Source: a virus
Virus genome (UHGV): UHGV-0342252
Direction: 5' to 3' (one strand)
Length of the DNA stretch: 12,818 nt
Below the pieces are notes generated by a model. That model did no database searches. It was given only the letters and a program-made list of their open reading frames with translations, and was not told the origin of the DNA. Of the stretch, positions 242-1,550 are shown in pieces; position 1 is the stretch's first letter; the number at the start of each line of letters is the position of its first letter. The translations under genes and the position numbers were made by a program.

Positions 242-410
242 CGTCTTCTTCCTCGTACATTGAGCTATTCGGATCGCTCATCAGTTCTGCGCAGCAGTGC
301 TCACACACATGAACTTCCAGCACATGCAGCTTCTGACTGCAGTTAGCGCACGTTAAAGCCCGCTCGACGCTTTCTTTCTGGTATTGAAGGGATTGGGATG
401 GGCTAAGCAT
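234..410 (-). CDS. small C4 zinc-ribbon protein with acidic C-terminus (58 aa)
   Basis: CxxC-x11-CxxC pattern (TCANCS...VCEHCC) and EEEDDE tail. Start chosen at ATG 410..408 (GGTGA upstream, 8-nt overlap with upstream stop); the ORF-track ORF extends to 464, so the start is uncertain. Confidence 0.45.
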   Translation of the reverse strand: MLSPSQSLQYQKESVERALTCANCSQKLHVLEVHVCEHCCAELMSDPNSSMYEEEDDE

Positions 411-810
411 GGCTTTCACCATTAAAAAGTCGCTTGTAAGCATCAATGTCTCGTTTTGCTTCACCGAGCTTTCGTCTTAATTCCATGTTTTCTGATTCAA
501 GCTTTTCCATGTCTTGTTGGTATCGATCGCGGTGTTCTTTCCATGCTTTTTGATACGCCTTCATGTATGTCATGTTGGCCTTTCTCTTTGCCTGACGAAC
601 TGCGTGGTGGTTTTCTACAAACCACTCAGGGTCGTTAAATGCTGCTCTGGCGCATGTATACCAATAATTTGTTGCCTCCCTGTTTAGCCAATAAATACTG
701 ATAAATGGCAACTGGATAGACACCATTTTTCGTTGAGACTCTTTCTCGCCAAACATGTGTCCTTTTTTGATGCTAAGGCCAAATCCAGGTTGAATTAAAA
801 GCATTGTCAT
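403..810 (-). CDS. hypothetical protein (135 aa), charged/helical C-terminal half
   Basis: ORF-track ORF; ATG at 810..808 overlaps the upstream stop (ATGA). No family recognised. Confidence 0.5.
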
Positions 811-983
811 TTCCTCGCACGATGTCTAAGCCACCGGATATCCCACAGGTGAGCCGTGTAATTGAAGGTTTTTACGTCAGATTCTTTTGGGATTGGCTTG
901 CGTTTATTTCTGGAGCGTTTCGTTGGAAGGTATTTGCAGTTTTCACAGATTATGTCGGTGATACTTCGTCGCTGTCGTCTCAT
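807..983 (-). CDS. small basic nin-region protein (58 aa), possibly NinE-like
   Basis: Internal ATG at 983..981 overlaps the ninB stop (ATGA); product [20 protein letters not shown]... is Arg/Lys-rich. Position directly after ninB matches where ninE sits in lambdoid prophages; the family assignment is a guess. Confidence 0.4.
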
Positions 984-1441
984 TCGTACCTCCTGTCGGT
1001 AAATCTGACACCCTGACCAATAGCCCATGCTGTTGTGTACTCGATCAGACTTGCCATACGCTTCACGCTCATCTGCGCGCTGCTTTCGCGAATGTTGACG
1101 TATTCGCCTTCAAGGCCGGGCAAAACATCAGCTTCCTGCTTTGTTGCCACTGCATGACCGCTTATCAACAAAACCTTCCATTGTTCTGGTTTTAACCATT
1201 TGCCGCACCATTGAACCTGACTTGCGATATCCGCCAGCATCGCGTGAAATTTTGCGTTCTGGTCAAGGTTGCGCTTGTAGTCAGTAATGCGGATGGTAAC
1301 TGGCTTGTCTTTATCGAGTGGTGTTGCGAGGATGGCGTCGTGCAGCAGGTGAATGCTCATACAACTCATCAATCGGCAAACTGGACGATGAACGATACCG
1401 ATACCAACGCACCAACTCTTCACGAAAATTAGCCCTGACAA
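980..1441 (-). CDS. ninB: NinB-like recombination protein
   Basis: Central region ([44 protein letters not shown]) resembles lambda NinB as I recall it (KPIVVTIQERNRSLDQNRKLWACLGDVSRQVEWHGRWLDAESWK). Maximal ORF begins with TTG at 1441; real start may be an internal ATG (1369 or 1360). No convincing SD at any candidate. Confidence 0.6.
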
Positions 1442-1489
1442 GCTCAGCTATCGTACTCATTTCTTAAAGCCTCCAATTCCCTCTCCCCC

Positions 1490-1521
1490 AAATAAAAAGG
1501 CCTGCGATTACCAGCAGGCCT
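1490..1521 (-). terminator. intrinsic terminator after the primase-helicase gene (tR2-like position)
   Basis: On the minus strand: 8-bp perfect stem AGGCCTGC / GCAGGCCT (1521..1498) with 8-nt loop, followed by TTTTATTT (1497..1490), about 30 nt after the helicase stop. Confidence 0.6.
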
Positions 1522-1550
1522 GTTATTAGCTCAGTGATGTAGATGGTCAT

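Follow-up and report, generated by a model that had tools for sequence, protein, structure and literature searches.

In the virus genome UHGV-0342252, a 49-codon ORF with a strong Shine-Dalgarno (SD) sequence runs into the 5′ end of ninB in a different reading frame. With a probability of roughly 0.88, this arrangement is the product of a microhomology-mediated deletion that joined the front end of a DUF7301 gene, out of frame, to ninB, i.e., an ordinary gene-decay scar in which the NinB remnant is most likely null. The scar is a familiar kind of pseudogenization in an E. coli prophage, and is neither a new overlapping gene nor an unusual start mechanism. The proposed event, a microhomology-mediated deletion of 156 or 371 bp, would have affected the nin region in a lambdoid E. 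coli prophage; one copy of the repeat ACGC(T/C)ATCC is left, and the remnants of DUF7301 and ninB are +1 out of frame with one another. Within the window, by which we mean the whole 12,818-nt stretch of DNA that was analyzed, the features around the scar are as follows:

Stop at 1551, minus strand: 626-aa toprim primase-helicase gene, upstream of the ninA-like ORF.
1464..1550, minus strand: ninA-like hydrophobic ORF of 28 codons (MTIYITELITGLLVIAGLFIWGRGNWRL), matching phrog_5907 (E 6.4e-18) and annotated as ninA in phage HK620.
1498..1521, minus strand: tR2-type intrinsic terminator hairpin from a terminator scan, with an 8-bp stem, an 8-nt loop and a T-run to ~1488.
1470..1474, minus strand: GGAGG, which precedes ATG 1460 by 9 nt and is the SD of DUF7301.
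1311..1460, minus strand: 49-codon ORF, consisting of DUF7301 codons 1–42, seven foreign codons (HPRNTTR, ninB DNA in the wrong frame) and TAA 1313–1311.
1335..1460, minus strand: native part of the DUF7301/phrog_1785 gene (codons 1–42 of 71), delimited by DNA identity and profile coverage.
1369–1367 and 1360–1358, minus strand: two fortuitous ATGs in the ninB frame, lacking an SD and lying inside DUF7301-derived DNA.
1330..1338, minus strand: putative deletion junction, where one copy of an imperfect 9-bp microhomology, ACGC(T/C)ATCC, remains and homology blocks to three intact relatives overlap by 8–9 nt.
980..1336, minus strand: ninB (orf) remnant, codons 19–136 plus stop, lacking codons 1–18, the ATG and the SD, and in the +1 frame relative to the 49-codon ORF.
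807..983, minus strand: intact ninE (Pfam NinE 1–58/58), with its own GGAGG (993–989; −11.6 kcal/mol) and an ATGA overlap with the ninB stop.

Two gene families in overlapping frames

A preliminary description of the window had reported an ORF of 49 codons at 1311–1460 (minus strand), opened by GGAGG and ATG 1460 just after a terminator. Both points hold: the ORF appears in the mechanical ORF list, its start has a predicted anti-SD pairing energy of −9.3 kcal/mol (compared with −11.6 for ninE and −6.1 for the primase start), and the sole terminator-like hairpin between 900 and 1700 is of the tR2 type. The hairpin is 97–100% identical to the stretch annotated as terminator tR2 in phage HK620; an Rfam search of the whole window returned no family. 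The ninA-like ORF is read through this hairpin, with its ATG directly after the primase stop and its end 3 nt before ATG 1460.

Judged by its profile matches, the 49-codon frame is not a chance ORF, since its product matches both Pfam DUF7301 (PF23975; E 3.5e-14, 53.1 bits against a cut-off of 27) and phrog_1785 (E 4.4e-19). The matches are incomplete at the C-terminal side, covering 1–45/65 of the DUF7301 profile and 1–45/71 of phrog_1785, compared with 1–64/65 and 1–71/71 for the 71-aa relative from phage CurroJimenez_Bas106. Homologues of DUF7301 are mostly 69–75 aa long, while the product in the window has 49 aa, only 42 of them native. Over the first 123 nt compared, the DUF7301 DNA of the window is 100% identical to that of CurroJimenez and of E. 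coli CAVP773, and the same GGAGG found at 1474..1470 precedes the intact gene of CurroJimenez. The window copy does not differ from the 71-aa DUF7301 protein of CurroJimenez_Bas106 and E. coli (WP_001515064.1) in its first 42 residues or in its SD/ATG context, and the position directly after tR2 is the one the gene has in lambdoid E. coli prophages; the difference from the 71-aa form is that the window copy is cut after residue 42 and continues with a seven-residue foreign tail. The intact protein, encoded directly after tR2 in CurroJimenez (1592–1807) and in hundreds of E. coli genomes, has a basic C-terminus. In some of the intact relatives examined, the gene is adjoined by one for a 68-aa protein (phrog_18758; 1818–2024 in CurroJimenez), and both are conserved small genes in lambdoid E. 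coli prophages. A literature search for DUF7301 found no papers.

The second frame belongs to ninB. As the preliminary description had observed, the 49-codon ORF overlaps this frame and ends inside it, and no start candidate in the ninB frame has a good SD. The longest ORF in the frame spans 980..1441 (TTG start, 153 aa), giving an overlap of 131 nt (1441–1311), with the ninB frame at +1 relative to the 49-codon ORF. The canonical starts available (TTG 1441, GTG 1423, TTG 1372, ATG 1369 and ATG 1360) have SD pairing energies of only +0.9 to −3.1 kcal/mol. The ORF nevertheless matches Pfam NinB (PF05772) at 164.7 bits, against a cut-off of 23.8, and it has the expected position in the pR operon, downstream of tR2 and upstream of ninE. 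Over residues 19–136, it shows strong homology to the lambda recombination mediator Orf/NinB (PF05772; PDB 1PC6), a family characterized by ssDNA and SSB binding and by substitution for RecFOR, and the remnant is 97% identical to the 136-aa NinB proteins of E. coli prophages. Lambda Orf/NinB is likewise encoded after tR2 and before ninE, with an ATGA overlap to ninE.

What the window lacks is the beginning of the NinB family. Coverage of the NinB profile is 18–131/131 and starts at residue 35 of the 153-aa ORF, while intact 136-aa relatives, e.g., CurroJimenez NinB, cover 1–131/131; the domain in the window is therefore incomplete in its N-terminal β1-α1-β2 RAGNYA half-unit. In a 16-sequence alignment reaching down to 59% identity, an N-terminal block, M-(E)-KQxxFLRxEQxxxNAxNAI, is common to all full-length NinB homologues, Pasteurellaceae proteins at 59–61% identity among them, and is missing from the window sequence. 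The residues that precede A19 in the ninB frame are an out-of-frame read of DUF7301 DNA. Relative to lambda Orf, the window ninB is missing its first 18 codons (β1 and most of α1), its start codon and its SD, and is preceded instead by out-of-frame DNA of another gene. Because intact relatives cover both profiles fully, each of the two frames is a piece of a different, well-populated family, one without its end and the other without its beginning.

Among the start candidates, TTG 1441 was rejected, the residues that it would add being an out-of-frame read of DUF7301. The preliminary description had proposed that an alignment of NinB homologues could support this TTG and thereby undo its argument; the alignment gives the TTG no support, and the residues upstream are not NinB-like. 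At orthologous loci, by its other proposed comparison, the alternate (DUF7301) frame is the conserved one. Two antisense ORFs, at 1318–1467 and 1211–1432 (both plus strand), have no Pfam match and were dismissed as mirror ORFs.

The proposed deletion junction and its intact relatives

Three intact-type relatives were compared with the window: phage CurroJimenez_Bas106 (locus L001), E. coli CAVP773 (L007; NZ_CM176349.1) and E. coli SW070919 (L008). In BLAST alignments, window positions 1551–1330 correspond to CurroJimenez 1501–1722 at 99.5% identity, and positions 1337–810 correspond to 2086–2613 at 97.7%. These blocks have 8 nt of the window in common and lie 371 bp apart in the phage; CAVP773 shows the same arrangement. 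The flanks are thus collinear in all three relatives, with extra DNA between them of 371 bp in CurroJimenez and CAVP773 and of 156 bp in SW070919. Gene order in the first two is tR2, DUF7301 (71 aa), the 68-aa hypothetical gene (phrog_18758), NinB (136 aa) and NinE. In SW070919, the 68-aa middle gene is absent, and the flanks match the window, with a toprim primase upstream and NinE plus a 133-aa gene downstream. In the window, ninE is followed by a 135-aa ORF (403–810, minus strand) that has no recorded Pfam family and overlaps the ninF start; gene calls in L004, L009 and SW070919 give it 133 aa.

The ends of the missing segment fall in short direct repeats. In SW070919, the copies are ACGCTATCC in DUF7301 and ACGCCATCC in ninB, of which a single copy is kept at window positions 1338–1330; in CurroJimenez, the ninB copy is CCGCCATCC, where the match is 8 bp. 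The breakpoint sequences of the intact genes read ...CACGACGCTATCCGCG... in DUF7301 and ...ATCAACGCCATCCTCG... in ninB, and the window reads ...CACGACGCCATCCTCG... across the junction. The single retained repeat copy is the signature of a microhomology-mediated deletion. Missing from the window are DUF7301 codons 43–71 (the 3′ third of the gene), the DUF7301-ninB intergenic region and ninB codons 1–18 (MKQTIFLRSKQQQQAAIT); an ancestor with the 68-aa gene would have lost that as well. The ninB SD/ATG of the relatives, TTGAGGAATTCCATG or AGGAGTGACGATG, also lies inside the deleted segment.

The intact relatives bear directly on how the overlap should be read: their DUF7301 and ninB genes are separate and non-overlapping, each with its own SD. 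The preliminary description had offered three options. The first, unusual initiation of ninB, finds no support, the initiation region having been lost by the deletion. The second, an overlapping small gene, is right in that the 49-codon ORF is a remnant of a real DUF7301 gene, but the overlap itself is accidental and not conserved. The third, an old frameshift, comes closest: the frames are indeed broken, but by a deletion of 156 or 371 bp and not by a shift of 1–2 nt. The genuinely overlapping or coupled nin genes of lambda, described as a “chain of interlinked genes”, have conserved ATGA overlaps of 1–4 nt, and the ninB-ninE pair in the window is of this kind. By contrast, the DUF7301/ninB overlap in the window is 50–131 nt long and specific to the deletion allele; the sequences that carry it do not differ from one another, and in diverged relatives the genes are separate.

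The same comparison weighs on programmed +1 frameshifting, which would produce a DUF7301-NinB fusion protein and for which we see almost no likelihood. In its favor, ninB lies +1 to an upstream ORF that is well initiated, and the two frames share 131 nt. However, the 49-codon ORF has no X XXY YYZ heptamer, its sole homopolymer run of ≥4 is one TTTT, and reading the sequence reveals no RF2-like CUU UGA site with a preceding SD. Moreover, the arrangement is confined to the deletion allele, the intact relatives having separate genes that each start from an SD of their own.

A genuine new small gene, in which the 49-aa chimera has become a neofunctionalized small protein, is also very improbable. 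Its strong SD and ATG make translation very probable by prediction, and the conserved N-terminal 42 residues of DUF7301 are kept; against this, the basic stretch of 29 residues at the C-terminus, which the family conserves, is gone, the seven-residue tail comes from ninB DNA read by accident, and the copies show no diversification, each being identical to the others.

Expected translation products and the probable loss of NinB

Under the deletion reading, ribosomes would load at the intact DUF7301 SD/ATG (1474–1458), translate 42 native codons, cross the scar, continue out of frame into ninB DNA for seven codons and terminate at TAA 1313–1311, yielding a C-terminally truncated peptide of 49 aa. 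The ninB remnant, having no ribosome-binding site, would be translated little or not at all. Start signals of their own are retained by ninE and the genes after it. A low level of SD-independent initiation at ATG 1369 or ATG 1360 is conceivable, as is re-initiation after the stop at 1311. Any product from either ATG would carry 8–11 foreign residues and would lack β1 and most of α1.

These two ATGs are the basis of the strongest competing reading, which we nonetheless regard as unlikely: a functional, N-terminally truncated NinB that starts at ATG 1369 or 1360 by coupling to the upstream ORF, such that initiation is unusual and not lost. The frame is open from 1441 to 980 and contains both ATGs, PGAP and Prodigal each call a NinB gene in it, and the allele persists in two phage backgrounds. 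In addition, the equivalents of lambda Orf residues Arg41, Gln45, Asn46 and Trp50, highlighted as conserved around α2 and the central channel, lie downstream of the deletion and are retained. The initiation signals are poor, however: the ATGs lie in the DNA of another gene, and their SD energies are only +0.3 and −2.2 kcal/mol. ATG 1369 and ATG 1360 are 56 and 47 nt upstream of the stop of the 49-codon ORF, so that the upstream stop lies well past them, a poor geometry for coupling. Termination-reinitiation coupling over 47–56 nt is unlikely to be efficient. None of the aligned NinB homologues naturally begins at this point, and the missing part of the protein, β1 and nine of the 13 residues of α1, contributes to the dimer interface and the RAGNYA sheet.

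The structural consequence can be gauged from lambda Orf, in which β1-α1-β2 of each monomer makes up half of a dimeric RAGNYA sheet (PMC4118853, PMC2034487). The sheet is the proposed ssDNA-binding surface, and β1-α1-β2 also adds hydrophobic residues to the dimer interface (PMC4118853, PMC2034487). A full-length NinB relative aligns to lambda Orf (1PC6) from residue 2–3 onward. In an AF2 model of the full-length NinB monomer, α1 comprises residues 10–22, from which it follows that the deletion takes nine of its 13 residues in addition to β1; the model is of moderate quality (pLDDT 76.8, and 62 for residues 1–10), does not form β1 and β2 as strands, and was used only for the limits of α1. The structural argument rests mainly on the published lambda Orf structure. 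Because β1 and most of α1 are gone, a functional Orf from the window allele appears improbable on these structural grounds, and the allele is most likely a NinB null. Loss of ninB would be tolerated because nin genes are dispensable: lambda without the whole nin region is fully plaque-forming, and with polarity on Q relieved, knock-down shows ninB to be non-essential in lambda (PMC10695390).

It is conceivable that the scar allele has been kept because one of its products is useful, either an SD-less NinB without residues 1–18 (e.g., as a RecFOR/Red modulator) or the 49-aa chimera, although we consider this distinctly unlikely. If true, a useful product would explain the presence of the identical allele in at least two replication-module backgrounds.

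Occurrence of the allele and its annotation

The same junction is present in at least 17 contig records from ~10 or more samples or assemblies. Exact-protein look-ups placed the 49-aa ORF on five contigs, a 126-aa “NinB” on 13 and a 129-aa “NinB” on four, counts in which some contigs possibly appear more than once. The sources include the NCBI E. coli assemblies GCA_038101965.1, GCA_043370215.1 and GCA_054854455.1, ENA metagenome assemblies and several Logan runs. All of the carrier loci fetched (L004–L006 and L009–L016) have the identical junction and the exact ORF.

Three of these loci (L010, L013 and L014) have a sharp mosaic boundary exactly at 1551, where the replication gene stops and ninA/tR2 starts; the 1,551 nt downstream of the boundary are 100% identical to the window. 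Upstream of it, in place of O and the toprim primase-helicase, these loci encode an HNH protein, a replication protein, a DnaC-like loader and a Ren-like protein; L014 has a different Q antiterminator gene as well. The allele is real, heritable and rare, and it has moved between mosaic backgrounds. That it is real and heritable, as opposed to an assembly artefact, follows from the identical junction in independent contigs with two replication-module backgrounds. The invariance of the allele sequence suggests a recent origin. That the allele is 100% conserved in two or more mosaic backgrounds would fit a neutral sequence that spread recently, and does not by itself prove loss of function.

A false junction arising from sequencing error or a collapsed assembly would be a mundane explanation. 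A 26-mer spanning the junction had no exact match in GTDB representative genomes, IMG/VR or JGI metagenome contigs, and megablast against 5,426 complete E. coli genomes and 50,697 phage records from GenBank returned only split matches of the intact type, with none contiguous across the junction. The zero matches of the 26-mer did not mean that the allele is absent, as Logan, ENA and NCBI draft assemblies carry it. Indeed, the junction recurs in >15 contigs that were assembled independently, by different projects and assemblers (NCBI, ENA and Logan), and with differing upstream modules, which leaves an artefact with hardly any probability.

Other ninB alleles are broken as well. In E. coli CAVP773, ninB (1052–1462 of the locus) has an independent lesion, CAA to TAA at codon 14, and RefSeq/PGAP calls the remnant as a 120-aa “recombination protein NinB” from an ATC just after the stop. 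Among database NinB sequences, P0025, P0029, P0088 and P0105 are C-terminal frameshift products that read through into the ninE frame. A further entry, P0026 (202 aa), has a membrane-like N-terminal extension. The lesions of CAVP773 and of the four frameshifted sequences are point mutations or frameshifts, whereas that in the window is a deletion that also truncates the neighboring gene and creates an overlap. The database entries suggest that ninB is often damaged or miscalled in draft assemblies.

The window remnant is itself called as NinB by both PGAP (129 aa, from ATG 1369) and Prodigal (126 aa, from ATG 1360). Public records, e.g., EMW2734915.1 (129 aa) and EPD3062251.1 (126 aa), describe a “recombination protein NinB” with an invented N-terminus, and the DUF7301 remnant is omitted or miscalled. 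The main value of the finding is for annotation: once the scar is recognized, the locus is no longer mistaken for a case of non-canonical initiation or for a new overlapping gene. For the phages, the case illustrates the decay of dispensable lambdoid nin-region genes by deletion and nonsense mutation; even when dead, such alleles continue to pass from phage to phage through recombination at the tR2 module boundary.
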